Below are positions 2,343-41,751 of a DNA stretch of 42,059 nucleotides, piece after piece. Source of the DNA: Escherichia phage HHU8. The DNA lies in the sequence record PQ641135; one strand, written 5' to 3'. Position numbers and translations under genes: made by a program. The notes below the pieces were generated by a model, which searched no databases, had not been told where the DNA came from, and saw only the letters and a program-made list of their open reading frames with translations. The stretch's first letter is position 1. Every line of letters begins with the position of its first letter.

Positions 2343-5300
2343 TTAATCTCCTTTAACTGCTTCGGTAAGGGCGCGTACGCCGGGGACTATCGACAGCAGT
2401 GGTAGAGCCATTAGTGTGTTGCCAGTAGCCTGACGCGCATTGTTAAGAATACCCCCAGCGTCGCCTTGTAAAGCAGAACGGCCAACACCAGCGACGTTGC
2501 CAGCTACACCATACACACGGTCAATGAACAGCAGGCCCGGCGCACCAAAGCTGCGCTGCTGTCCAGTCAGGACACCAGTGAACTCAGAGGCGAAGCCGAT
2601 GGCACCGAGATAGTTCAGCGCTTGGCCAGCCAGCGCACCAATAGGTCGCTTATCATCAAAGCCTTTGCCAGAGATAACATTGTTCGCAGCTGTAGCCATC
2701 ATCGCCAGCGGATACTGGTAAGCCATAAGCGTAGCCATACCACGGGCACCCTCACGGTTCCAAGTACCAACCAGCGTCTTGTTGTGCGTAGCCGCGACGA
2801 ATCGACGGAACGTAAACAGGAACTTACCGAGGGTACTGAACTCAGCAAATGCAGGCAGCTCACCTACGCGAGCGCGAACAATAGCGTCATCCATGGCGTT
2901 AATCATGACGATGCGGGAGCGATTGAACACCCCTTCATCCCAAGCGTCAGGCTTGGTGCCATGGGTACCAACCTGCTTGCGAATGTCAGCCAGCAGTGCG
3001 TCATTGGCACCGTAGGTTTTCATGGCTGCAATAGCCTTGGCATCACCTTCGGCTGCCTTACGCAGCGTCTGCATCACGAGCGCAGCATTGGTTCGAGTCT
3101 GGTGGAAGTGGATGTACTTCTGCATGTTGATGAACATCGTAGCATCACGCAGGTGTTCCATACGCATGACCCACGGAGACTTATCCGCAGAGAACATGTC
3201 GTCATAGTGCTGCATGATTGGGCGCATACGAATATCACTCGCTACAGCCGCAGTCAGCGCTTCCTCGGCATCCAGAGCCAATTGACGACCTTCCTTAGTA
3301 GACACCCTCATTTGCTTAAATAGTGCGCGTGCTTCGGGAATTGTACGCATCATGGCGCGAAATGTATTGACTGCCCCGAAACGTTGCATCATCGTGCCGT
3401 ATTCCACCAACTGCCACAGGCCAGATGCAGCCAGACCAGTAGCCTGAGTCAGCGCAGAGAGCTGGCGCATGAACTCCGGCATTTCCTCACCAACAGGAGC
3501 ACCTTGGTAGTAAGCCATGATGTTGTCGTATTGGTCGAGAGCCTTGCGACGTGCCGTGCTATCCGGGATGGATTTGGCCAGAGCCTCACGAGCGGCGGCG
3601 CGTTCAGCGTCAGTACCCAGCCCAGCCTCGTGCAGAGCCAGTCGCCCGGTAATGCGGCGGTTGTAGCTGTCCATCATGCTGGTGATACTGTCATCGAACA
3701 GGTCGCGCACCTGCAAGTTCGGGCCAAGCGTGTGCATCATGTCGATGTTGATACGGCTCTTGAGCATCGACGGTCGGCCAGCGTCCGAGCCAGACTCACG
3801 AAGGAGTGCGGAAGCACGGGCTTTGGCAGCCTCGTCGAGACCTTTCGAGTTCTCAATGATTTCGAGCAATTCATCACGACCTTCCTTGTTGATAATCATG
3901 CCGGAGTTGTCGATACCATAACCCTTACGACGAGCACGCTCAACCATGGCATGGGCGATTACGTTGGCAGTCGGGCGGTCAGTACCGATACCACGCTGCA
4001 CCGCAGTCGTCATCTGCTTCATGAATGGCTTCTTGCCGAGCAACTGCTCAGCCTGCTCAATCTTGGTCACGTTCATCCGGCGCGGGTAGTAGTACGGGTT
4101 CTTGTCTACAAAGCCCGGTTCCACCATGCCCTTCGCTTCCAGCTCACGGCCCACGGCGCGGGAGTATTCCCCCAGTCGGTCGGCGGCAGCGGCCACGTTA
4201 GCGTTCGCGCCACGGAACTCCTTGTCAATCATACGCTTGTCCAGCTCGAGACGAACAGCAGCTTCGAACTCCTGCTGCGCCCGGCGATATCCCACCGGGT
4301 CACGGAAGCGACGTAAGTTGCTCCAGCCATCAGAGTTCAGTGCGTTACGCAGAGTGTCCTCGTACTGGTTCAACAGCACACCAAAGCGAGCCTGAGTCTC
4401 GCGCTGGATTGCAGCAGCAGAGGTCATGTTAGGGTTCAGTGGGTCGTCCAGCAATCGCCCGGCGAGAGCGCTGGCTTCATCAGAATGTTGGCTGAATGAT
4501 TTGAACAGCGACCATTCTAGGAACGGACGTTTCGGGTTGGTCTGCTCCCCACGGCGAGCAAGGTCGAGACCGCGCTGGGCAGTGGCCCGGATGGATTCAG
4601 GCACTTCATCGACCACAGCAGCACCTCGCGGCCCGGCACCGAGTGACATGGCCAATGGCGAGGTCATGTTGTTCGGGTCAAACTGCGGCGGGTTGTTCGG
4701 GTCAATACCGTTGCGACGCTGCATCTCCGCTGCAAATTCCTCCGGCGACAGGTCGGCCAGCGAGCGCTGTACCGGGGCCGGGCGATAGAATGCAGTGGTG
4801 GCCGCCCCGTGCAGGGCAGCCGCGAAGATGATTTCGTTCTGAGACACAGGGCGTGCTTCGTTACCCACCGCTGTCATAGTGGCAGCAGTTGAAGCTGCAC
4901 CGACAGCGGCGGTTCCGAGGCGACCTAATTTCAGGGCAGTGCCTGCTCCCATCGAGAGCAGGTCGGTGGCGAGGTACAGCGGGTCAGCGAATTGCAGAAC
5001 CGCGTTCATCACCGGGGCAGTGTGAGCCAACTGAGTACGCTCGCGCATCTCTTGGAGCTGCTGCGTACGCCAGTTGAACTCATCCATAGATTTGGATTTA
5101 AACAGGAAAGTTCTATCGTCTTCACCAATCGGGAACTGAACCTGCTGCAACGCCTCGTTGGGCTTGAAGTCAGGGTCAGCCTGAAAGGTAGGCTTGTTGA
5201 AGGCGGCATCAAAGAGCTGAGTGGTGTCCCAGTTCTTCACAGAAGCGCTCAACGCCGTGGCAATTGGAGTGGCTTCCAGTTCCTGCATCTTTTCGAACTG

Positions 5301-5441: not shown

Positions 5442-8134
5442 TCCTGCATACCTGCGAGTAGAGTTTGGACGTAATACTGCTTACGCTCGTCCTGCGACAG
5501 CTTGTAAGCCGGGGTCGCAGCCAGAGCCTGAACAGCTTTCTCTCGGTCTCCAACACGGATTGCATCAGCCAGTTTGCTGTACGCACCCTCGGTACGATAC
5601 CAGCTTGAACCTGCCTGATAACCCATCTGCATCATGAACTGGAACTGGGCATCGTTATCACGACTCCACCCCAGTGCAGCAGCAGTGCCGGGCATCTGCC
5701 GGGCTACCATGTTGGTGTGTGCTACGAACGTATCGTGGATAGTTCGCGGAGACCATTCAGTACCGCCTTTCATACCGGAAGCCTGACCCTCAGCAAAGTA
5801 CGGGCTGCGGTCGGAGATACCGACCCCGTTCGTCTGCACGCCAGTGCTGTCACGGTAAGTGGTGCTGCGGATACCTTCGAAGTCAATCAGTTTGCCACGG
5901 GCAACAAGCATACGCTGCTCGTTTACCCCAGCAGTATTCACGCCGTTCACGCGGATACCCACGTTACTGGTCTTATCAACAAAGAGTTTCCCGTCGCCGT
6001 AGACTTCGTTATTGGCAGTGGCCGCTGCACGGTCGTCTTCACGGATGCGTTCTTGTACGACCTGCGGCAGAATGCGTACCGAGTTCGGAGAAACGTCACC
6101 TTGCTTGTTGAAGAACTGAACGTTCAGGGAGCCATCTGGCATAAAGGAGTAGGACGACTCGAAGCCTTCTGGTGCCTTGGTCTGGTCAAGTGCGGCGATA
6201 GCGCGACCGATACGGTCGGGGGCTACGTCAGCAGGCAAGCCGAGCATAGACTGAACAGTTTGGCCTCTCGGTGCGATAAGCACAGAGCCGGGGCTGAATG
6301 TGGTTTCCCCAACGCGGAGGACACGGTTGGCCAGCTTCGCAGAGGCCAGAGCTTCCATACCATCCTTCGTGATATTAGGGTTCTTGAGGACAACAGCTTG
6401 CAGTTCCTCGCGGTACGCGGCAGCCACCTCCGACATTTCCTGCGCGGCAGTAATGTCACCAGATGCGACGCGAGCTTGGAACAGGTTCTGCTGAGTGTCT
6501 GAGAACAGACCAGCCAGCCCCTGCCAAGTGCGAGATAAGAAGCCCTGAGCCTCAAGGGAGTTCACCACGTTGTTAACGTCAGATTGACGCTGCGTGAGAA
6601 TTTGAGATTTCTGTGCCGGGGTTAAGCCAGCATAGTCCTGCTGCTGCTTGATGTAACCCTGACCAGCTTGGTCGATGGTGCGCCCGGCCTTAATCTGCTC
6701 GCGCATGTACACCATCTTCTCTTGGTTTTCCTCGGACAGACCGGACAGGAGTTTAGTCCACGCGGTCTTGTCACCCTGATTCTCGGCCACGGTTACGCGG
6801 TCAATCAGCCCGGTCACGGTAGCGGCTGCGTCAGGGTTCATTTCATCCACGGTGCCGAAGTTCGACAGGGATGGTTCAATCAGTTTCGCGGCAGACTTGT
6901 ACGCGGAAGGGAAACCAGTCTGTGCGCCAACTTGCAGCAGGTCGAATGCCACGGAGCTTGCCGTCGCGCCCGGTTGCTTCATGCGAGCCTTGATGAATGC
7001 GTCAGCACCATCCTGCTCGCTCGCGCCCTGCTGGAGCATGTACGTCTGGTTCCCGGTAGCGTAAGCCTGACCGAGCTGACTGGCCTTGGCTTGCTTGGCG
7101 TAATCCTTGTAGAAGGACTCGATAGCCGAGCTGAAACCACTGGCGCTAATCAGTTTGTTGTCCACCATCTGCTGGAGCGTCTGAGTGTACTGCTCCGGCG
7201 TAACGTCACCGAACACTGCTTGCCGTGCGTCGAGCTGACCTTTCTGTGCCAGCAGACCCATGTTGTCCTGAACCTCGGTACGAGATTTGGATTCACGAAT
7301 CTGACCTTGCAGCTTGGCCAAGTCTTCCGCAGGCAGCTCGTTGAACAGCCCGGAGTTCACAGCAGTCTCGACCGGAGTACGCAAATCCTGCTGGAGCATC
7401 AGCCCCATCATGGACGTTACCTGAGTCCGGCGAGTTTCCAGTGGTAGCTTCTCGTCTGCCAGAATGGACTTGGCCCATGCCATGGTCGCAGCCGTAGCGT
7501 TAGCGTACGCGCCGCCGTCACCAGTTGCTTTGGCCTGAGCCGCCAGAGTAACGAGAGTGTTACCCTGCGAGTTGTACATCGCCGCACGCTGCTCAACCAG
7601 ATACTTACCATGCTGGGCAGCCTGCGTACGGATAAGGGTATTGCTGAACGTGAGCTGGTTTTCCAGCAGAGCCTTACGGCCATTCAGCGTCATGCCATCA
7701 GTGTTCTCGAACAGGCCAGTGGTCTTCTCGTCCACCACCTTCAAGAACTCGTCAGGACTCATTTTCGCGTACTGCGGCATGTTAGCCGAGATTTCAGAGG
7801 CGACGTTCGCCATCTGCATACGCTTGTACTGGTCGTTATAACCAGCCTTTTGGAACTGGGCGGTTAGCCAGTTTGAATCCAAATCCTCAACGGCCTTCCC
7901 GCTCGCGGCGGCGTTGGCACCTTTGAGGTATTCTTCCTCGTTCGCACGTTCAGTGACACGACCAGCCAACTGGCTGGCCATGTTCAGTACGCGCTGAATA
8001 GACTCGGTAGGAAACGTGTCGATGCGAGTATCGCGGCCTGCGAGACTAAACGGAGTCTGCGCCTGCTGCACACTTGGTAATCCCTGCTGCGCAGCATTAA
8101 TGTTAGCGCCACGCTGGTCACGCAAAGTAGCCAT
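5438..8134 (-). CDS. internal virion protein, T7 gp15-like
   Basis: 898-aa ORF between the gp14-like and gp16-like genes; ATG at 8132-8134. Call based on synteny and size. Confidence 0.6.
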   Translation of the reverse strand: MATLRDQRGANINAAQQGLPSVQQAQTPFSLAGRDTRIDTFPTESIQRVLNMASQLAGRVTERANEEEYLKGANAAASGKAVEDLDSNWLTAQFQKAGYNDQYKRMQMANVASEISANMPQYAKMSPDEFLKVVDEKTTGLFENTDGMTLNGRKALLENQLTFSNTLIRTQAAQHGKYLVEQRAAMYNSQGNTLVTLAAQAKATGDGGAYANATAATMAWAKSILADEKLPLETRRTQVTSMMGLMLQQDLRTPVETAVNSGLFNELPAEDLAKLQGQIRESKSRTEVQDNMGLLAQKGQLDARQAVFGDVTPEQYTQTLQQMVDNKLISASGFSSAIESFYKDYAKQAKASQLGQAYATGNQTYMLQQGASEQDGADAFIKARMKQPGATASSVAFDLLQVGAQTGFPSAYKSAAKLIEPSLSNFGTVDEMNPDAAATVTGLIDRVTVAENQGDKTAWTKLLSGLSEENQEKMVYMREQIKAGRTIDQAGQGYIKQQQDYAGLTPAQKSQILTQRQSDVNNVVNSLEAQGFLSRTWQGLAGLFSDTQQNLFQARVASGDITAAQEMSEVAAAYREELQAVVLKNPNITKDGMEALASAKLANRVLRVGETTFSPGSVLIAPRGQTVQSMLGLPADVAPDRIGRAIAALDQTKAPEGFESSYSFMPDGSLNVQFFNKQGDVSPNSVRILPQVVQERIREDDRAAATANNEVYGDGKLFVDKTSNVGIRVNGVNTAGVNEQRMLVARGKLIDFEGIRSTTYRDSTGVQTNGVGISDRSPYFAEGQASGMKGGTEWSPRTIHDTFVAHTNMVARQMPGTAAALGWSRDNDAQFQFMMQMGYQAGSSWYRTEGAYSKLADAIRVGDREKAVQALAATPAYKLSQDERKQYYVQTLLAGMQE

Positions 8135-15749: not shown

Positions 15750-16010
15750 TTAGCTCCCAATGCCGAGGTTACTTGCCACACCAGTTCCGGTACGGCGGCG
15801 GCGACCACCCAGTGTGTCAGAGGCCGAGCTTACTTGGCCACCTGCCTGAATGGTTGGGGTGTTCTCACCAGCGAGGTCGGCTGCAAGGTTAGCTTGCATG
15901 GTTTCTGCCTTGACCTGCGCCGGGTCAGTCTTGATAGTGTACTGCGGCTTTTGGCTACCCAGTCCGAAGACGGAGCCAATGCCCTTGAATACTTTGCCTA
16001 CGCTACCCAT
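15750..16010 (-). CDS. small Gly-rich protein, possible virion protein
   Basis: 86-aa ORF; ATG at 16008-16010 preceded by GGAGAA; Gly-rich N-terminus (GSVGKVFKGIGSVFGLGS); immediately upstream of the portal gene. Confidence 0.4.
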   Translation of the reverse strand: MGSVGKVFKGIGSVFGLGSQKPQYTIKTDPAQVKAETMQANLAADLAGENTPTIQAGGQVSSASDTLGGRRRRTGTGVASNLGIGS

Positions 16011-16429
16011 TACGGTTTCTCCAAATCAATGAAGCGGTACTCCTGAACGTAAGGCCGCACCATATGGGAGTAACCGCACCAACGCACACCCGCTGAACGG
16101 GCCACGTCTTTGAGTACACGGAGGATGGCACGCATCACTCCACGGTTTCTGTACTGGGGCCAGACGTATGAGGCCATAACGACCACCATCTCACCCACAT
16201 GAATATCGAATAACCTGCCGATGTGAGCAACAGCCATGAGGCTGCCGTCATCGTCAGTGATGTAAACGTCAACGCAGCCGGAGGCGGTGGCCTCGTACAT
16301 GCTGTCAACAATCACATCGGGAGATAGGTCTGACCATGGCCGCTCAGCTTGAATGCCCTCGGCCACAGCACGGCGAATGTCGAGTGGCATCGTCGTGTGT
16401 GATGTATTTCCCATAGTAGACACTTTCAT
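16010..16429 (-). CDS. putative GNAT-family N-acetyltransferase
   Basis: 139-aa ORF; contains an R-x-x-G-x-G/A acetyl-CoA-binding-like motif (RNRGVMRAIL) followed by an amphipathic helix, as in GNAT motif A. Its ATG (16427-16429) lies inside a copy of the 21-bp ATGAAAGTGTCTA motif. Confidence 0.4.
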   Translation of the reverse strand: MKVSTMGNTSHTTMPLDIRRAVAEGIQAERPWSDLSPDVIVDSMYEATASGCVDVYITDDDGSLMAVAHIGRLFDIHVGEMVVVMASYVWPQYRNRGVMRAILRVLKDVARSAGVRWCGYSHMVRPYVQEYRFIDLEKP

Positions 16430-16430
16430 T

Positions 16431-16677: not shown

Positions 16678-16698
16678 TATCACTATAGACACTTTCAT
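16678..16698 (+). promoter_or_regulatory. second copy of the 21-bp promoter-like element (plus strand TATCACTATAGACACTTTCAT) with an adjacent 14-bp palindrome, between the RNA polymerase gene and the late genes
   Basis: Plus strand 16670-16683 GTGATATCTATCAC is a palindrome; 16678-16698 is identical to the minus-strand sequence at 37488-37508. Lies in the 110-nt gap after the RNA polymerase stop. Orientation of function is ambiguous. Confidence 0.4.
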
Positions 16699-16726
16699 TT
16701 AAGTCAATGATACATATCACTATTTA

Positions 16727-19159
16727 TCAGCAGAAAAACTTGCTTGATTGTTTCACAAGTTGGATATCCAGATTGCCACGCTCAGGTGCAACAGCATTGT
16801 ATCGTACAGCAAGTTGTTGAATCGGGTCATGTTGCTCATACATCTGCACGAACTTTTCACGAATGACCTTGTGGAGTAACCCGGCATGAGCTGCTGCCAC
16901 CCCGAACGAATCGTGGATAGACACCATGTACACCCCGTTATTCCACATCTCCCACAACACCTTCATCATGTGGCTGGCATCCATAGCGTGTACGAAATTC
17001 GGAGCAATCGCAGCGGCACACTTCCTGCCATCAGGCTTGTCCAGATACTCGCGCAGCTTAATGCTGTGGATACCCATGAGGTTGATGTTATTGAGCATCG
17101 TCTCCTTGCTGGCTTGATACAGGTTCACCACTCGCAGCCCTGACGGTGCAATGATTTCCACGTACTCACCGTTGGCTGCCGCCTCTACCGCGATAGCCTG
17201 CAACCATGCCATCAGCTCTGCCGCCTTCGGCACAACGCGAGGGATTGCATTCCACATGAACTCTGCGATGAACTGCGCACACTCCAGTAGGCTCTTGCCG
17301 TCCGGCAGCTTGACCCGGTTCTCACGCAGGTACAGGCAGTAGTAGTCCACCATCCCGTGTCGGGTTGCCCCGTACACGTATGTCATCACTGGCTTCTTAG
17401 CCATCGCCCGGACAATGCCGATTGAAACAAGCCACGAACCCATCTGCGTCGGTGACTGCGCTTCACTATCTTCAAGAGCCTGCATCGCCGCTGCTGCCGT
17501 CTTGAGATATATGTCTGCTTTTCTTCCCACGCTATTGATAAGATTGACAGCAGCACCTCCAACTTCATCTCGTAGCATCGCACTGAGGTGCTGGAGTCCT
17601 GAACAGGTAGCATCCCATTGCGTGACCACTCGGCAGGGATAAGTCTCAGGATTTCCTGAGTCGATAGCGCGAATGAGTTCAACAGAGGCAGCCCACGCGC
17701 TGATAGGGCTATCGGCCTCTGACCAGAACGAATCAAATGCCTCTGGAAGACGGCACGCCTCACGTAGTCGGGGGAGTGTCTTGTCCGTCCACGCCGCCCG
17801 GTCGTCGAAGTCTGTTGCGTCGTAGCCGAAGCAATTCGCAACATGAACCTTGAGCCAGAACAGCCCCTCAGTTCCGAGAGCCACTGGTTCCGCAAGCTCA
17901 AGCAGCGCTCGCACCGCGTCGATAGACTGAGGATTAAGGGTCGAAGAATAATAAATTCGGCCCCGCGTATCGGCGTAAGTCGGGAGATAAATCCTATCGT
18001 ACTGCGCATACCTGTCTGCCTCTTTGACTGCACCATTCAGCGCCAGCATCTGTGACGTGAACTTACGCAACTCATTGTAATACAAGCGAGTCTTCACCTT
18101 GTACTCATGAGCTTCGGCATCCATCTGCTGCTGCATCTCTGGTGGGAACTTGCTGATGTACTGTGCAAAGCTCACACCAGCCGGGATGGTAAACGGAAGT
18201 GTAGGTTCACGAGGCGGCACAGGCAGCCCCATAACGCCTGTACGGTTCGTTCGCAGGAACTCCAGTACCATTGGGTTAACTCGGTACGGAACGCTGCTGA
18301 GCATCATACACGGCTCTATAACGGGGGTAGGGTCAACGTTCAATGCACGATACCCTTTATGGTTCATGCGGCTCATTACCCGGTACATCGCTGCCTGCCC
18401 ATCTGAATGCCACATACCGCTGCGACCGTTAGGTGCAATCTGCTTCGGCGGGATAATCAGTGGTGGGCAGCACATGCCATCAGCACGCGGCATGTCCAAC
18501 CAGTCATTCATCGTAGCCAGCACATCCTCGTGCAATGCAAAGTGTGCCGTACCGCGCTGGCGCTGGTTGCCTCCGACACGAATCGTGGACACCAGACCAG
18601 TTGGCTCAACGCACTTCATCATAAGCTTGCCAATGGTAATCAGCGCACGCTGCGGCAGCACATCAATCTCCACCCCAACGTTCGCCGCCGACGCACGCGC
18701 TTTGTTGTAGACGTGGTTCGCTGACTTCGAGCGAGACTTCTTCACGTCCTGCTTAACGCGCTCCATGTACGCCGCCTGCTGCGGCCCGGTCTGCTTCGCC
18801 CGGAGGTACACCACCTCAGCCATCAGTGCCTTGCCCATGCTCTTGAGCAGACTCAGTACCGCCTGCTCCGACGCAGCACCGGACACCGCCATGCTCAGTG
18901 CAAGAGAGGCACACGCTTTGGTGCCAATCTCACGCATGTACGTCCGGTACTGCGCACCATACCCACGGGTCGTTTCGCTCAGGGTTTCTTGCATCGCAGC
19001 TTCGACCAGAGGATAAGCCTCAACCATCATACGCTGGAGCAACGGCACCGACCCGGCGCGGCCACTGGCCATCGCCTCTTTGATATTATCCAGCCAGCCC
19101 TCGCGGTGTCTGGCTCGCGCTTCTTCTTCAAGTCGAATCTGCTCTGCAAGTAAATCCAC
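16727..19159 (-). CDS. single-subunit DNA-dependent RNA polymerase (T7 RNAP family)
   Basis: 810-aa ORF with hallmark motifs: DATCSGLQH (motif A), VMTYVYGAT (motif B region), HDSFG (motif C). Start is GTG at 19157-19159, 5 nt after a perfect AAGGAG. Confidence 0.9.
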   Translation of the reverse strand: MDLLAEQIRLEEEARARHREGWLDNIKEAMASGRAGSVPLLQRMMVEAYPLVEAAMQETLSETTRGYGAQYRTYMREIGTKACASLALSMAVSGAASEQAVLSLLKSMGKALMAEVVYLRAKQTGPQQAAYMERVKQDVKKSRSKSANHVYNKARASAANVGVEIDVLPQRALITIGKLMMKCVEPTGLVSTIRVGGNQRQRGTAHFALHEDVLATMNDWLDMPRADGMCCPPLIIPPKQIAPNGRSGMWHSDGQAAMYRVMSRMNHKGYRALNVDPTPVIEPCMMLSSVPYRVNPMVLEFLRTNRTGVMGLPVPPREPTLPFTIPAGVSFAQYISKFPPEMQQQMDAEAHEYKVKTRLYYNELRKFTSQMLALNGAVKEADRYAQYDRIYLPTYADTRGRIYYSSTLNPQSIDAVRALLELAEPVALGTEGLFWLKVHVANCFGYDATDFDDRAAWTDKTLPRLREACRLPEAFDSFWSEADSPISAWAASVELIRAIDSGNPETYPCRVVTQWDATCSGLQHLSAMLRDEVGGAAVNLINSVGRKADIYLKTAAAAMQALEDSEAQSPTQMGSWLVSIGIVRAMAKKPVMTYVYGATRHGMVDYYCLYLRENRVKLPDGKSLLECAQFIAEFMWNAIPRVVPKAAELMAWLQAIAVEAAANGEYVEIIAPSGLRVVNLYQASKETMLNNINLMGIHSIKLREYLDKPDGRKCAAAIAPNFVHAMDASHMMKVLWEMWNNGVYMVSIHDSFGVAAAHAGLLHKVIREKFVQMYEQHDPIQQLAVRYNAVAPERGNLDIQLVKQSSKFFC

Positions 19160-30821: not shown

Positions 30822-30893
30822 AGTTCACCTCACGTTGGCCAATATAGACACCTTCATAATGCCTGCTAAATAATAACAGGCATGAGTAGATGA

Positions 30894-36163: not shown

Positions 36164-36556
36164 CTACGCCTCTACTACCCAAAATTGCGCACCATCGTAA
36201 GTCCAAGCAGTGTACTGCCCGGCTTCCATCTCGGCCTCAGTCTTACTGACTAACTTGCCAGCAGGCTTGCCCGGACATGGTGAATCCATGAAGATTGCAT
36301 CATCATCATCAGTCACTACCATGATGCAGTCCTGTTCAAGAGCCTTACAGAACAGCTTAATAGCCTGCCTGATTTCATAGATTCCATCGACAGGAAATAC
36401 CATGCTCAACTCGTACTGATTGTCGAACTTGCCTGTCAGTGTGACCGGAATCACTCCGAACATATCCTGCACCGTTCGCAGTGCCTTGCAATGAAGCGCC
36501 AGATTAACACACTCAGCATTGTTCTGACGATATGCGCTTGCATAGATACGGTACAT
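36164..36556 (-). CDS. hypothetical protein, first early gene downstream of the sigma70-type promoters
   Basis: 130-aa ORF; ATG at 36554-36556 with GGAGAA upstream; lies ~450 nt downstream of the tandem promoters. Confidence 0.5.
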   Translation of the reverse strand: MYRIYASAYRQNNAECVNLALHCKALRTVQDMFGVIPVTLTGKFDNQYELSMVFPVDGIYEIRQAIKLFCKALEQDCIMVVTDDDDAIFMDSPCPGKPAGKLVSKTEAEMEAGQYTAWTYDGAQFWVVEA

Positions 36557-37014
36557 AGTTATTTCTCCAGTTGTTGGCTATTTTCAGGTGGATAGTGAAC
36601 CCATTGTGACGCGCCGTACAGTCTGCACTCGTTGGCATTGATTGGCTTGTCGGATTCACTACCCTGAAAAATCGCCCCGCCCATTTCGCGCTGTGAGTAT
36701 TGTCTTCACTCACTCTCAGGAGTCTTCCAGCAGTCCGGCTCACCGTCACCAGCTTATGCCTACCTACCCGCTATACTCCGCGCCTTATAAGACGTTTGGG
36801 ATTGTGCTGATACTGCGCTGCGTCTATCGCGCTTCTCCGTTCCCTTGCATCGGGCGCTACCCCTACGGCGTTAGCATTGTTGCGATACCGTTGCCTTTCG
36901 GCGATGCCTCACCCAGTTCCAACCTGCGGCGGATACCCAGTGAGCCGTGACACTACGCGGCCAGTTTGCGTTCACTCAGAGCAGGATGCTTTCCATCCTT
37001 TCAACTCGGTGCTG

Positions 37015-37043
37015 ATTACAACACAGTGTATTCAGCTTGTCAA
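37015..37043 (-). promoter_or_regulatory. sigma70-type early promoter P3 (TTGACA - 17 bp - TGTAAT)
   Basis: Minus strand TTGACA (37038-37043), 17-nt spacer, TGTAAT (37015-37020) with TGT upstream; third tandem copy. Confidence 0.6.
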
Positions 37044-37083
37044 CTACTTTTTACTTCTGACTGACTGGCTTACTGCCTGTCAA

Positions 37084-37112
37084 TCTGGTGTGTATTACAG
37101 CATACTCGTTCC
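37084..37112 (-). promoter_or_regulatory. sigma70-type early promoter P2 (TTGACA - 17 bp - TGTAAT)
   Basis: Minus strand TTGACA (37107-37112), 17-nt spacer, TGTAAT (37084-37089) with TGC upstream; same architecture as P1. Confidence 0.6.
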
Positions 37113-37229
37113 ATCCTGTCAACCGATTTAATCAGCGCCCGTTCTGAGATGATTAGACCGTACCAGTTTGCCTGCGTGGGTTTTAACGTCTTTATCCATG
37201 ACTGTTTGGCTTGCTGGTTGACTGGAAGC

Positions 37230-37258
37230 ATTACAGCATAGTGAGTTTGCCTTGTCAA
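37230..37258 (-). promoter_or_regulatory. sigma70-type early promoter P1 (TTGACA - 17 bp - TGTAAT)
   Basis: On the minus strand: TTGACA (plus coordinates 37253-37258), exact 17-nt spacer, TGTAAT (37230-37235), with TGC immediately upstream of the -10 hexamer (extended -10-like). Points toward the early genes. Confidence 0.6.
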
Positions 37259-37330
37259 CACACCAGATTGTTAAAGAGCAGTGTTACCGTTCAATCTTGT
37301 CTACTGGGCTAGTGCCTTTCGACGTGATGA

Positions 37331-37360
37331 ATTACAGCACATAACCAAAACAGTTTGCAA
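37331..37360 (-). promoter_or_regulatory. possible weaker sigma70-type promoter P4 (TTGCAA - 18 bp - TGTAAT)
   Basis: Minus strand TTGCAA (37355-37360), 18-nt spacer, TGTAAT (37331-37336). Confidence 0.35.
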
Positions 37361-37381
37361 GTATTATTTTCAAGAAAAGTG

Positions 37382-37479
37382 ATAAGTTACTGTAATCATT
37401 GAGATTAAAGTTTGATTGGATAATCACAACACTGGATAGAATACCGTTATCAGATAGGTCATAAGTTACTGTAATCATT
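37382..37479. repeat. AT-rich region with a 19-bp perfect direct repeat (ATAAGTTACTGTAATCATT x2)
   Basis: Identical 19-mers at 37382-37400 and 37461-37479 within an AT-rich block between the T-depleted tract and the sigma70 promoters. Confidence 0.5.
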
Positions 37480-37487
37480 AGATAATT

Positions 37488-37508
37488 ATGAAAGTGTCTA
37501 TAGTGATA
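37488..37508 (-). promoter_or_regulatory. promoter-like element with T7-class core (minus strand reads TATCACTATAGACACTTTCAT), upstream of the sigma70 promoters
   Basis: Minus strand carries ...GATACTATATCACTATAG|ACAC...; the core TCACTATAG matches the conserved -8..+1 of T7/SP6/K11-group promoters. It sits just upstream of the tandem early promoters, comparable to the T7 left-end phage promoter. Perfect 21-bp inverted copy of 16678-16698. Confidence 0.4.
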
Positions 37509-37519
37509 TAGTATCGCTA

Positions 37520-37960
37520 GATACGCAGAGCGAGCGCGGCGCAGCCGAAACAAGCGAGCGCGGAACGTCAACGGATGGAATCCGACAGGATGACAGGCGG
37601 CAGACAGTGAACGCAGTAGGACAGTAGACAGAGTGTAACAGCAGGTAGCAGAGCATGACGCGCAGAGCTGGAGGCGCAGACAGTAGACCAGCAGACAGGA
37701 CAGCACCACGCAGCACCACGCCGCGCCACGAAAAGAGACAGATACCCGCCCGACCACAGGCAGCACGCAGCACCGCGCAGCCAGCGCAGAGCGTCCCCAT
37801 AGGACAGCACCGCACAGCACAGCCAGCAGGACAGCACCGCGCCGAGTGATGAAACGCGACACGCACGAGCTATACCGCACGCAGGCAATCCTCTTGACGC
37901 GCCGCGCAGCGCACGCGAGCAATTATCGCGCACGTCGCGAGGCTAAACCGCGCACACGCT
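37520..37960. repeat. thymine-depleted, short-repeat-rich non-coding tract (candidate terminal-repeat / concatemer-junction region)
   Basis: About 440 bp in which the plus strand is nearly devoid of T and is built from degenerate short repeats (AGGACAGCACC at 37697, 37800 and 37828; GACAGTAGAC at 37625 and 37681; many ACGCAG/CAGCAC units). No credible ORF; lies between the last gene (endolysin) and the early promoters. Confidence 0.5.
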
Positions 37961-38072
37961 ATGGGGGCACGCGCGGTCATTTGGGTCGAGGGAGGGGCAC
38001 GTACAAATAGTCAATTTTCAAGCCGGGGTATTGCACCCACGGCCTGTTCATTGCATCAGCTTTTGGATACCC

Positions 38073-38609
38073 CTACAGCGTCGCACAGTAAGCGCTACAG
38101 CGTTTTGCACGGGCAACCAAGGCATCCCTATAGCGAACCACTGTCGGGGCTGTAGAAGCCTTTAGGAACGCAATACGAAGGTCACAGATGGCTGCTGCTG
38201 CGGAGTGAGGTTCCAGACGTTTGGCTGCTGCCACGGTAGCAGGGCCAATAACCCCGTCTTGTGCAACACCGCATACCCGCTGTAGAGCTTTCGCAGCACG
38301 GGAGACGCCGGAGTTGACGCCGTAATCAAACACGGCACATGCAATCGCAGGGTGAAGCTCGTCACCTCTGATGGGGCTGTAGTAGTCCCGGCGATAGATT
38401 GCCTCGGCTTGCTCTTTGGTGAGCTGCTTGATAGGCACACACACAGTGCCGCCAAGCCCAGTAGGGACACCACAAGCTCTACCATCCAGCTTCCCATCAC
38501 GAGCGTCACTAATTCCATGGTTGGTCTCCCCTCCAGTGTCACCGGGCAGCTTGGTGTACCCACCCTCGGCCAGCCCGGTGAACTTCATACAGATTTCAAA
38601 GTTAGTCAT
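38073..38609 (-). CDS. endolysin: glycoside hydrolase family 108-like N-terminal domain plus PG_binding_3-like C-terminal domain
   Basis: 178-aa ORF; N-terminal GLAEGGYTKLPGDTGGETNHGI fits the GH108 lysozyme motif pattern (EGGY...D.GG.T..GI), and the C-terminal GVAQDGVIGPATVAAAKR fits a peptidoglycan-binding domain. No signal peptide, so holin-dependent. ATG at 38607-38609 overlaps the upstream stop (TAATG). Confidence 0.75.
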   Translation of the reverse strand: MTNFEICMKFTGLAEGGYTKLPGDTGGETNHGISDARDGKLDGRACGVPTGLGGTVCVPIKQLTKEQAEAIYRRDYYSPIRGDELHPAIACAVFDYGVNSGVSRAAKALQRVCGVAQDGVIGPATVAAAKRLEPHSAAAAICDLRIAFLKASTAPTVVRYRDALVARAKRCSAYCATL

Positions 38610-39826: not shown

Positions 39827-39991
39827 CTAAAGTACCACCACCAGATTTGTGATGGCAGTTTCAATGTCAGCAGCCTGAGCTGCCGTCACTGTACGGGTAC
39901 CATTGATGAAGCGTTGAGTCACGTTAGCTGCGATACCACAGCGATAACCAAGCTCGTAACGCTGAGCATCAGTGATGGTGGTGATGGACAT
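39827..39991 (-). CDS. hypothetical small protein; reading frame continues 57 codons past its TAG stop
   Basis: 54 aa from the ATG at 39989-39991 (GGAGAA upstream; ATG overlaps the terminase stop as TAATG). Its TAG at 39827-39829 is followed in frame by an open stretch down to TAA at 39656-39658. Confidence 0.35.
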   Translation of the reverse strand: MSITTITDAQRYELGYRCGIAANVTQRFINGTRTVTAAQAADIETAITNLVVVL

Positions 39992-41751
39992 TATTTGATT
40001 CTCCGTCGCGTGCCGCGCACAGGTTTGTGGCTGCGCCACTTCGAGTCGTCGTAACCCATCGGGTTGGCAAGGAACTCTCGTGCAGCAGCAGTCTCACGCT
40101 TGGCGGCTTCTTCATGTTCGTCCTGCTGTAGCACCTCAGCGTGCAGGTACACGGCAGCAGACAGGGTTTCAATGCGGTCGTCGTGGGGGATGGATTGACG
40201 GTCTTGTGTCAGGTTCTGGAGCTGCCAGAACAGACTGAACTCACGACCACCGTTATTCATGCCCCGGCACAGCCGCAGGTCTTCTTCAACAACACACCAA
40301 TGCACAACGACACGGTGGCGCTGCATGATTGGGCCGAGGCGGTTGATGATACGCACCTCTTTCTGACCGGACGAGTACACGCCATCACAGCCAATGGTCA
40401 AGCTCTGACGCTTAACCTCACCTCGGTACATGTTGGTCACGGTGCCGTGGCCCATGTTATCCTCAATGACCAGTCGCTTAACCCCGGTTTCAGCAAGCCA
40501 CTCTACCGCCGCCTTGATGTTTTCCTCCGTCTGACCGCCGTGGTAGACGTGCATACCGATGACGTGGATAAACGGGCCGACAGAAGCGGTGGCAATGATA
40601 ACTGATTCGTCCGACCCACCACCAGCAGGGTCAAGAAACGCCGAGGTATTTTCGAATGGTACATAAGTGTCCGAGAAATCAGCAGCCAAGAATAGCTGAG
40701 CGCGAGCCAGTGGGAAATCCAATGGCAGCTCGGCGGCATGGCGCGGGTGGTTCGACCAATGCAGAACCTCCGGCGCAGACTGCGTAGAGCCGTGGAAGAA
40801 GATTAAGTCTTTGAGATGTAACGTCTGTTTGAGCGCATCCGACAGCGACGTGTCCAGCATGAACTGCAACTGGAAGCCTGCCTGCTGGTAGTCTCGTTCG
40901 TTCTGCAACTGCTTCTCTTCGGAGTAGCGTTGCGGGTCAGTCTGTGCGCCACGGTTCCCAAGGATACCGTACCCAGTACGCAGTTCAGGGTGGCCATCCA
41001 TCTTCTGCTTAATCCACGGGGCCAGACAGCCGCCGTAGCGTTCTTCTTCCTCAACCGTTGGGAAACGACCGGGCCAGATGCGAACGTCGAAGCCACGCTG
41101 CGGGAGCGTGTTGTAGATGGAGTCCTGAGTCTGCGGTGTACCAAGGTACAGAATCTCTGCACCATCATTGGCGATAGCCGCGAACTCTTTGGTCAGAGTG
41201 TTGATACGGGCGCGGTTGGCAGGAGAGCTACCGTTACTGGTAGTCTCCACGTCATCGGCAATCAACAGCGATACGTGGTTCCCCTGCAACTGGCCGAAGA
41301 TACCAACTGCTTTGACAGAGGGCTGTTTGTCAGGAATACGAAATGCGTGGTGTACGTCGAAACCGTCCGTATAGGAGGTACGTGCGCCAGCGCGAGTTTC
41401 AGGGCGCAGCCATTCCAGTCTGTCCCATTGCATAATGGCAGACACGATGGCGTGCGAGAGCGTACCCGCATAGTCGTCAGAACCAGATACCAGCAGCACA
41501 GTGGCGTTAGGCATCTGGATGAACTCATACAGAGCACGGGCAATGCCGATGGTGGACTTAGCCTCACCGCGCTGAGCCATGACGCACTTGTTCTTTAGCG
41601 TCCGGTCGGCCATGTAGCGGCCAATATCGAGCTGCATTTCAGTGAGGTCAAAGCCCAGCCATGCGAAGTAGTCATGCAGGAACAGCGGGAAGTTGTTCTC
41701 GTAGTGGGCGCGAACAATTCCTGCCATCACCATGCGGCGTTGTAAATCCAT
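39991..41751 (-). CDS. terminase large subunit (T7 gp19-like)
   Basis: 586-aa ORF, the same length as T7 gp19; N-terminal region resembles T7-group terminases; follows the small-terminase gene with a TAATG overlap. Confidence 0.85.
   Translation of the reverse strand: MDLQRRMVMAGIVRAHYENNFPLFLHDYFAWLGFDLTEMQLDIGRYMADRTLKNKCVMAQRGEAKSTIGIARALYEFIQMPNATVLLVSGSDDYAGTLSHAIVSAIMQWDRLEWLRPETRAGARTSYTDGFDVHHAFRIPDKQPSVKAVGIFGQLQGNHVSLLIADDVETTSNGSSPANRARINTLTKEFAAIANDGAEILYLGTPQTQDSIYNTLPQRGFDVRIWPGRFPTVEEEERYGGCLAPWIKQKMDGHPELRTGYGILGNRGAQTDPQRYSEEKQLQNERDYQQAGFQLQFMLDTSLSDALKQTLHLKDLIFFHGSTQSAPEVLHWSNHPRHAAELPLDFPLARAQLFLAADFSDTYVPFENTSAFLDPAGGGSDESVIIATASVGPFIHVIGMHVYHGGQTEENIKAAVEWLAETGVKRLVIEDNMGHGTVTNMYRGEVKRQSLTIGCDGVYSSGQKEVRIINRLGPIMQRHRVVVHWCVVEEDLRLCRGMNNGGREFSLFWQLQNLTQDRQSIPHDDRIETLSAAVYLHAEVLQQDEHEEAAKRETAAAREFLANPMGYDDSKWRSHKPVRGTRRRIK

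Follow-up and report, generated by a model that had tools for sequence, protein, structure and literature searches.

We analysed the 42,059-nucleotide sequence of Escherichia phage HHU8 (sequence record PQ641135, called the window in the following) and found a pair of identical 19-bp boxes, here named Y boxes, between two predicted promoters that point away from each other, one for the host RNA polymerase (P1) and one for the phage RNA polymerase (X1). We regard the pair as a real cis element that is conserved and belongs to a control region of a known kind. Its function is inferential: with a probability of roughly 40%, the Y boxes may be sequence-specific protein-binding sites that serve the divergent promoter pair P1/X1. 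The window represents a Bonnellvirus genome in permuted form (J8-65/LIMEzero-like, T7 supergroup) whose genes are on the minus strand, and the words leftward and rightward refer to the phage orientation.

The Y box is the 19-mer ATAAGTTACTGTAATCATT, which reads AATGATTACAGTAACTTAT in phage orientation. It has only two exact copies, both on the plus strand, Y1 at 37382-37400 and Y2 at 37461-37479, and no further copy was found in the window when up to three mismatches were allowed. The first-pass annotation had reported a perfect 19-bp direct repeat with two copies 79 bp apart, and our search returned exactly these positions, with 79 bp between the starts of the copies. None of 100 dinucleotide-preserving shuffles yielded any match to ATAAGTTACTGTAATCATT. 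Y1 spans approximately -58 to -76 from the inferred start of P1, and Y2 ends 8 bp upstream of X1, at approximately -42 to -24 from the inferred start of X1. The DNA around the boxes had been described as AT-rich and as lying between a T-depleted tract (37521-37989) and sigma70-type promoters on the minus strand. Both descriptions are correct: the 150 bp from 37364 to 37513 have a GC content of 27% compared to a genome mean of 55%, and they are the most AT-rich and thermodynamically least stable stretch of the 42 kb.

Conservation and spacing of the Y boxes

A BLAST search of phage records with positions 36900-38100 found 19 records with 70-90% identity. Every fetched record with a genus-level classification is a Bonnellvirus (Autographiviridae/Autoscriptoviridae), and two records have no such classification. 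Among the related records are J8-65, Lidtsur and the Danish 'sur' phages as well as phages of Pantoea, Cronobacter, Kosakonia and Enterobacter. A locus search based on the SAMase gene gave only Lidtsur, J8-65 and one new contig, a P1-based pattern added only L145 and L151 from IMG/VR and metagenomes, and a search with the pattern of the second box type detected no new relatives. The pattern TTGCAAGNNTTATTTTC was too unspecific for finding relatives and returned 120 random loci.

The Y box pair is found in 13 related Bonnellvirus loci with the copies 79-80 bp apart, and in five of these 13 loci Y2 is present as a variant with three mismatches. The family follows the pattern AATG-NN-TACA-NNN-ACTT-R-T in phage orientation, and the direct orientation of the boxes is kept in all lineages. 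Across 15 aligned phages, Y1 has a mean pairwise identity of 0.946, which is the best value in the block, and Y2 has 0.859, approximately the value of X1, compared to 0.791 for the 60 bp between the boxes and 0.641 for the P1 spacer.

More distant relatives carry a second type of the box, and Lidtsur has a diverged homologue of Y1 in register. In L151, a more diverged and unclassified IMG/VR contig, boxes of the AAGTGTATGTAT type are found at both positions, in register and 128 bp apart. By manual count they are identical to each other at 15 of 19 positions and to the window box at 13 of 19, and both copies share the derived core AAGTGTATGTAT. The box GTAAGTGTATGTATTGATT next to the leftward promoter of LIMEzero is identical to Y2 of L151 at 17 of 19 positions (manual count), though the phage promoter motifs of the two differ. 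Y1 of aldrigsur is intermediate between the two box types. The surrounding sequence cannot be aligned in L151 and LIMEzero, yet homologous boxes stand at the same two positions. The Y boxes therefore predate the divergence of the group, and both in age and in conservation they exceed the phage promoter motif, which differs among these phages.

The boxes also keep their distance to the promoters. In four lineages, namely the window, usur, L151 and LIMEzero, the ATG of the X motif follows 27-28 bp after the start of Y2. From the start of Y1 to the start of the P1 -35 hexamer there are 26/27 or 38 bp in all relatives examined, and the step of 11 bp corresponds to approximately one helical turn. 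An 11-bp indel (CTGAATAGCTC) between the UP-like tract of P1 and Y1 (between 37373 and 37374) divides the relatives into two groups, and in the longer version Y1 spans approximately -69 to -87 of P1. J8-65 and Lidtsur carry the longer form too and LIMEzero shares the 38-bp spacing, so that this form is probably the ancestral one. Upstream activator or architectural sites are conserved sequences whose distance upstream of the core promoter is fixed or helically phased, and both Y1 and Y2 have this property.

Similarity between the two copies extends beyond the boxes. At a length of 28 nucleotides the repeat units are 89% identical (37373-37400 versus 37452-37479), and by eye the unit reaches approximately 45 nucleotides at lower identity. 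The repeat might be the relic of a duplication of about 45 bp of the X1 upstream region that has no sequence-specific function, with close kinship or recombinational homogenisation mimicking conservation. The decay of identity on both sides of the repeat is consistent with such a history, as are the 85-90% identity of the 13 closest phages across the whole region and the mosaic distribution of variants, which suggests recombination. We nevertheless consider a relic quite unlikely. The 19-bp core is identical at all 19 positions while the flanks of the same duplication have diverged, Y1 is conserved above the neighbouring promoter spacer DNA, and the homologous boxes of L151 and LIMEzero, the latter from a separate genus, persist at their positions amid unalignable sequence.

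A candidate protein-binding element

We read the Y boxes as protein-binding sites because of their footprint-like conservation, because the core was kept while the flanks decayed, because derived changes occur in both L151 copies, and because the distances to the promoters are fixed or helically phased. The boxes would act as upstream elements of the P1/X1 pair, with Y1 acting on P1 from one helix face and Y2 sitting just upstream of X1. P1 would fire rightward into the early genes and X1 leftward through the T-depleted tract and the terminal repeat, and both boxes might help to set the balance or the timing of host- and phage-polymerase transcription at the genome end. Since conservation across genera is higher for the box than for the phage promoter motif, the candidate factor would be either a conserved protein of the phages or a host protein that Enterobacterales have in common.

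Several observations weigh against this assignment. We compared the block with 17 consensus strings of host factors, including those of IHF, Fis, DnaA, CRP, LexA and Fur, and the matches were not above those of shuffled sequences; the best matches to IHF, Fis and DnaA were 8/9 (44% of shuffles as good), 9/11 (96%) and 6/8 (100%), respectively. The ten early proteins tested have no Pfam hit and no recognisable DNA-binding domain, and their only PHROG hits are to families of unknown function. As direct repeats, the two boxes are oppositely oriented to their nearest promoters, which is unusual for a common role as upstream elements. The 13 closest phages conserve the whole block (0.86 between the boxes), so that the contrast between footprints and surroundings leans partly on a few diverged genomes. 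J8-65 and smaasur keep Y1 only, with two mismatches, and Y1 of Lidtsur is diverged; these three phages retain X1 but carry other sequence at the Y2 position, and therefore Y2 is not indispensable for X1. Finally, X1 and P1, together with their directions, are assigned from sequence and by comparison with other phages.

The first-pass annotation had suggested a protein-binding region or upstream promoter elements, with IHF, Fis and DnaA as factors to look for. The general suggestion fits the footprints, the fixed distances to two promoters and the untranscribed spacer, but the three named proteins find no support in the consensus matches. We can also imagine, though we think it unlikely, a more far-reaching role in which the Y box, perhaps related to the TAATCATTG element upstream of phiOL in T7, is the site of an unrecognised factor common to the LIMEzero-like and Bonnellvirus lineages. 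Such a factor would couple the hand-over from host to phage polymerase with leftward, U-poor transcription of the terminal repeat and so organise the left end. If this were true, leftward transcription of the terminal repeat might serve replication priming or concatemer processing.

The predicted phage RNA polymerase promoter family

X1 (ATGAAAGTGTCTATAGTGATA, 37488-37508, plus strand, leftward) is the predicted phage RNA polymerase promoter next to Y2. Its 21-mer recurs once, inverted, at 16678-16698, with zero matches expected by chance. This recurrence is part of X3 (16678-16699, minus strand), which matches X1 at 21 of 21 positions, follows directly after the stop codon of the RNA polymerase gene and reads in gene direction. 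Two further copies are promoter-like: X2 (30837-30858, minus strand, 6 mismatches in 22) stands after a hairpin and upstream of the replication genes, and X4 (16409-16430, minus strand, 5 mismatches in 22) lies over the start codon of a GNAT (Rac-like) gene. The family has the form (A/T)ATGAA(A/G)GTGTCTA... in its four copies, and the left-end copy is in reverse orientation. This layout agrees with that of the four promoters mapped in LUZ19, including P001, and with the LIMEzero predictions.

In J8-65 and Lidtsur, the same four kinds of site are occupied by a covarying version, ATGAAAGTAACTG..., and the left-end copy is again inverted. The equivalents of X2 are found at 5663 in J8-65, 5998 in Lidtsur and 7294 in LIMEzero. 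X1 and the annotated phage-specific promoters of LIMEzero share the start ATGAA(A/G)G and the same positions, and the LIMEzero motif also has a leftward copy at the left end. X1 lies between the inferred left end (~37989) and the P1 -35 hexamer (37355-37360), as left-end phage promoters do in phiKMV-like and T7-like phages. It is predicted to fire leftward into the T-depleted tract, and the resemblance of CTATA|G to T7-type promoters suggests a start at approximately G37503. Reading X in the other direction, as a rightward and phiOL-like CACTATAG, was rejected, as the copies behind the RNA polymerase gene and before the replication genes would then be antisense; the opposite polarity in LIMEzero and LUZ19 contradicts it as well. 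The first-pass annotation was thus right in placing the repeat next to the early promoters, but the block is the spacer of a divergent promoter pair, and the predicted X1, 8 bp from the second copy, had been overlooked.

Small hairpins are found just past the inferred starts of X1 (37512-37525, plus strand, GTATC-GCTA-GATAC) and X3 (16686-16673, minus strand, GTGATA-GA-TATCAC), and they are possible 5' stem-loops of phage-polymerase transcripts. The GNAT gene (16010-16429, minus strand) is the gene after a small open reading frame (ORF) behind the RNA polymerase gene, and its start codon is the ATG inside X4. The ATG of the motif also serves as an actual start codon in J8-65, at 5664 and 19870. 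The GNAT gene sits where phiKMV-like phages have the gene of their 'Rac' protein, which is reported to inactivate the host RNA polymerase alpha (PMC7552054).

The Y boxes themselves could be phage promoters of a second class, reading rightward and arranged in tandem like phi1.1A/1.1B of T7. The model would be the strong promoter TAATGTTACAGGAGTA of KP34, with which the minus-strand box TAATGATTACAGTAAC... shares AATG and TTACAG; KP34 has a rightward copy of this promoter at its left end (475-490), and its polymerase recognises two unrelated promoter classes (PMC6834552). However, the match requires a 1-nucleotide indel and covers only about 10 positions, instead of 16 nucleotides in register. 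No further copy is found at any gene-start position in the window, and the sole related sequence, at 16707-16728, would read antisense into the RNA polymerase gene. The box variants do not follow the variants of promoter and polymerase across phages, and the positions expected for promoters are already taken by the X family. We regard a KP34-like promoter as extremely unlikely and rejected it, given the indel and the lack of other copies in the window.

Predicted host promoters and boxA

P1, the first early promoter of the host sigma70 type, lies on the minus strand at 37331-37381. It consists of the -10 hexamer TGTAAT (37336-37331) after TGC, the -35 hexamer TTGCAA (37360-37355) and a UP-like A/T tract (37381-37361). 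P2, P3 and P4 (37015-37259, minus strand) form a direct-repeat family of TTGACA-N17-TGTAAT promoters, read from the sequence. The -10 hexamers of P1 to P4 are at 37331-37336, 37230-37235, 37094-37099 and 37015-37020, all on the minus strand, and the units have the form TTGACA (TTGCAA in P1), N17-18, TGnTGTAAT. All four early promoters have the hexamer TGTAAT with TGn before it. Across 15 phages neither the hexamer nor its flanks vary, and LIMEzero uses them as well. In P1, the elements GAATTACAGCA and TTGCAAG and the adjoining TTATTTTC tract are invariant across the 15 aligned phages. A stricter sigma70 consensus scan listed none of P1 to P4 because of the G at position 2 of their -10 hexamer. 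They are predicted host promoters with the directions given here, and the LIMEzero record annotates the equivalent sites as host promoters.

The core of P1 is weaker, with TTGCAA and an 18-bp spacer, and P1 has the UP-like tract and a boxA. This rrn-type boxA, CACTGCTCTTTAACAATCTGG, is located in the P1 leader upstream of P2 (37263-37283, minus strand), and its 12-mer matches exactly and only once in the window. The sequence CACTGCTCTTTAACAATCTGG agrees fully with the rrn 'CAC-ugcucuuuaacaau' boxA RNA oligonucleotide (PMC2724277), and the boxA 16-mer is also found in T7 (814) and T3 (782). Since it sits between P1 and P2, it would be carried by P1 transcripts only. The 'CAC-boxA' is an antitermination signal of NusB/NusE.

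The Y box contains CTGTAAT and thus the same unusual -10 hexamer TGTAAT as P1 to P4. The repeat units could accordingly be weak leftward host sigma70 promoters on the plus strand, similar to A0 of T7 and T3, in which the 19-mer is kept as the -10 region. A TTATCA is found 17 bp upstream in Y2 and a TTTTCA 18 bp upstream in Y1, the latter in window-type phages only, and leftward E. coli promoters are annotated at the left ends of T7 (224) and T3 (126-150). On the other side, the consensus scan lists no site here and the box lacks the TG of the TGn extension found in P1 to P4. The 11-bp insertion displaces the -35-like hexamer of Y1 in most relatives, the versions in L151, Lidtsur and LIMEzero (TGTATT...) have no consistent pair of -10 and -35 hexamers, and the common Y2 variant turns TGTAAT into TGATAT. 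Together this makes leftward host promoters a distinctly unlikely explanation.

The AT-rich block

The AT-rich block at 37340-37520 is the spacer between P1 and X1, and it has the lowest GC content and the lowest nearest-neighbour stability in the genome. On the predicted positions of both promoters, a spacer of approximately 130 bp is transcribed by neither of them. The four X sites coincide with the four AT-richest places of the window. A structured RNA in the block was rejected, as the Rfam search gave no family match at E<=1 except one meaningless miRNA hit. A coding reading was rejected as well: the minus-strand ORF at 37332-37922, which spans the block, is an artefact, and relatives differ in it by indels of 1 bp and 11 bp. 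Long minus-strand ORFs cross the block and the tract because this strand is poor in A and every stop codon needs an A. Such artefactual ORFs over the tract and the block are 37332-37922, 37498-37866 and 37568-37933, and 'hypothetical proteins' are annotated here in several GenBank relatives, namely forsur_28, Kc261, ROV85 (gp21-24) and Lidtsur.

Direct repeats in AT-rich DNA are typical of replication origins, and the first-pass annotation had offered an origin-like region as one option; we keep this option solely by analogy with phiOL of T7. The block would be the easily melted part of a left-end origin coupled to a promoter, with divergent transcription from P1 and X1 unwinding the spacer and with the boxes as initiator or loading sites or as repeats of an unwinding element. 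No other DNA of the genome is less stable, the block adjoins a predicted phage-polymerase promoter as T7-type origins do, and its map position, with the first host promoter on one side and the left-end phage promoter on the other, matches that in T7. Yet in T7 origins the AT-rich region is downstream of the promoter, where the transcript can prime DNA synthesis, whereas X1 is directed away from the block and would transcribe the GC-rich T-depleted tract. The two boxes, spaced by 79 bp (128 bp in L151), do not form a regular iteron array of three or more. The ten early proteins show no recognisable initiator-like or DNA-binding domain, and DnaA boxes are not above chance. The other AT-rich minima are the other X promoters, so that AT-richness follows the promoter type, and LUZ19 has the same leftward promoter without an AT-rich block. 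A literature search on origins in phiKMV-like phages gave nothing relevant. We therefore consider an origin unlikely.

The left genome end and the genome setting

The J8-65 record was deposited with direct terminal repeats of 259 bp, which align to the T-depleted tract, and its first bases TCGACCC... correspond to window position 37989 on the minus strand. From this we infer the left end of the genome at approximately 37989. In phage orientation the order is the left end, the terminal repeat and A-depleted tract, the AT-rich block (37520-37340), the four host-type promoters, and the SAMase and other early genes. The T-depleted tract (37521-37989, plus strand), which includes the collapsed direct terminal repeat, has 7.9% T and would be transcribed by X1. 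If it were transcribed leftward from X1, a U-poor RNA would be expected. The equivalent tracts have a top-strand A content of 8.2% in J8-65, 13% in LIMEzero and 6.7% in LUZ19, unlike T7 with 29%.

The position of the boxes, 510-610 bp from the inferred left end, also allows a role at the genome end itself, for instance as sites of the packaging machinery (small terminase), where the shared orientation to the end would matter. The spaced R sites of lambda cosB are a precedent for repeats near an end. The direct orientation is conserved in all lineages, and the conservation of the box across genera, beyond that of the polymerase promoter motif, is as for a conserved phage protein. However, the fixed distances run to the promoters while the length of the tract between the boxes and the end varies among relatives, and three of the phages sharing the terminase lack Y2. 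A packaging or other end function is thus very unlikely.

Near the inner edge of the terminal repeat, at about 37745-37730 on the minus strand, we found TATCTGTCTCTTTTCG, which is conserved in relatives (J8-65 ~271-286, Lidtsur ~41161-41176). It resembles the class II pause/termination signal ATCTGTT at the boundary of the T7 terminal repeat (T7 161), and rightward late transcription may pause here at the concatemer junction. The glasur record (MN850583) starts inside the X1 motif (TATCACTATAG...), corresponding to window position ~37506. The probable reason is an arbitrary break in the assembly, though a coverage discontinuity is also conceivable.

Pfam searches identified an S-AdoMet lyase (36164-36556), a T7-type RNA polymerase (16727-19159, Pfam: PF00940), the GNAT protein (16010-16429), a DNA polymerase, a helicase, the large terminase (39991-41751) and an endolysin (38073-38609).

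Significance

Left-end control regions decide how phages of the T7 supergroup start an infection, and they also shape the switch to the phage's own polymerase, replication and the cutting of concatemers. It is believed that the host polymerase, acting from the left-end promoters, draws the genome in. The leftward phage promoter of phiKMV-like phages was mapped only recently, in LUZ19, and the same arrangement is now seen in Bonnellvirus and LIMEzero, whose hosts are Enterobacterales (E. coli for most Bonnellviruses here). The region may offer a compact and genetically tractable model for the role of the antisense promoter and the spacer. The practical value is moderate: better promoter annotation for E. 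coli phages in collections, and candidate polymerase and promoter parts for synthetic biology. None of the records that we fetched annotates the Y box pair or its fixed geometry, and nothing on the block was found in the literature searched, though several relevant searches missed their target.

Comparison with known systems

The rrn P1 control regions of E. coli have a UP element, upstream Fis or other activator sites as a rule, and boxA antitermination. P1 of the window is similar in its A/T UP-like tract, in conserved boxes centred at approximately -67 and -146, and in the exact rrn boxA in its leader. The Y boxes do not fit the Fis consensus, and the fixed distance to X1 accounts for the second box better than the distance to P1 does.

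The strong promoter of KP34, T(A/G)ATGTTACAGGAGTA (Lu et al. 2019, PMC6834552), resembles the minus-strand box in AATG and TTACAG and in having a copy near the left end of the genome. It differs by the 1-nucleotide indel, and the window has no copies of the box behind the RNA polymerase gene or in the structural region. The left-end copy of KP34 is a promoter mapped in vitro, whereas the box of the window is a sequence element.

In T7 as in the window, the terminal-repeat region is separated from the first strong host promoter (A1 in T7) by a phage promoter and an AT-rich interval. The phage promoter phiOL is annotated as 'replication promoter and origin of replication'. The two genomes also share a boxA-like 16-mer on the downstream side and, at the repeat's inner edge, the pause-like signal ATCTGT. 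In contrast to X1, which is leftward with the AT-rich DNA upstream, phiOL is rightward with the AT-rich DNA downstream. Just upstream of phiOL, T7 has AAAGTGATAA-N4-TAATCATTG, which can be compared with AAAGTGATAA-N7-TAATCATTG in Y1 and its flank. This resemblance is marginal, with 18 of 500 shuffles scoring as well (p ~0.04), and the element was found neither in T3 nor at any other T7 promoter. Homology of the box with T7 was therefore set aside and is kept as a lead only; AAGTGATAA and TAATCATT are not general features of T7 promoters. The T7 element is conserved in the three other Teseptimavirus-like phages that were aligned, Bas104, phiA1122 and AH67C600_Q5, where as in T7 (372-383) it stands, as CTTTAATCATTGTC, directly upstream of phiOL. 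It is present three times in tandem in Bas104 (PQ850595, ~3800-3850) and approximately twice in AH67C600_Q5.

LIMEzero (Waewaevirus) has five copies of a putative phage-specific promoter motif at places equivalent to those in the window, four at 7294, 20330 (right behind the RNA polymerase gene), 20740 and 33866 and one at 656 on the opposite strand. As in the window, this leftward copy at the left end adjoins an AT-rich block, which is followed by host promoters. The Y-type box GTAAGTGTATGTATTGATT starts 28 bp before the leftward promoter, and GTGATAAGT starts 38 bp from the first -35 hexamer. Unlike in the window, the boxes of LIMEzero are not identical copies, there are three TAAGT units, and the promoter motif is ...GGCAAGCACTAAGG. 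The record annotates two of the promoters, and the leftward one is not among them.

In the phiKMV-like phage LUZ19, ONT-cappable-seq mapped four phage-specific promoters, of which P001 lies at the left end in opposite orientation and gives antisense transcripts toward the other genome end (PMC10914365, Putzeys et al. 2024). We located the P001 motif at approximately 748 on the minus strand, after an A-poor tract. LUZ19 differs from the window in its promoter motif, GGTTATGTCACACACANNGG, and in having no AT-rich block between P001 and the host promoters; no comparable repeat was seen there by eye, and no repeat search was made. Its transcription starts were mapped experimentally, compared to the inferred starts of the window. 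The order of elements is the same, with a terminal repeat, a tract in which one base is scarce (in LUZ19, A at 6.7% of the top strand), a leftward phage promoter and then host sigma70 promoters, and in both genomes copies of the promoter motif directly follow the RNA polymerase gene. A left-end phage promoter, host promoters and boxA are thus known from T7 and the leftward phage promoter from LUZ19, and to the LUZ19-type layout the window adds the conserved pair of Y boxes and the rrn-type boxA.

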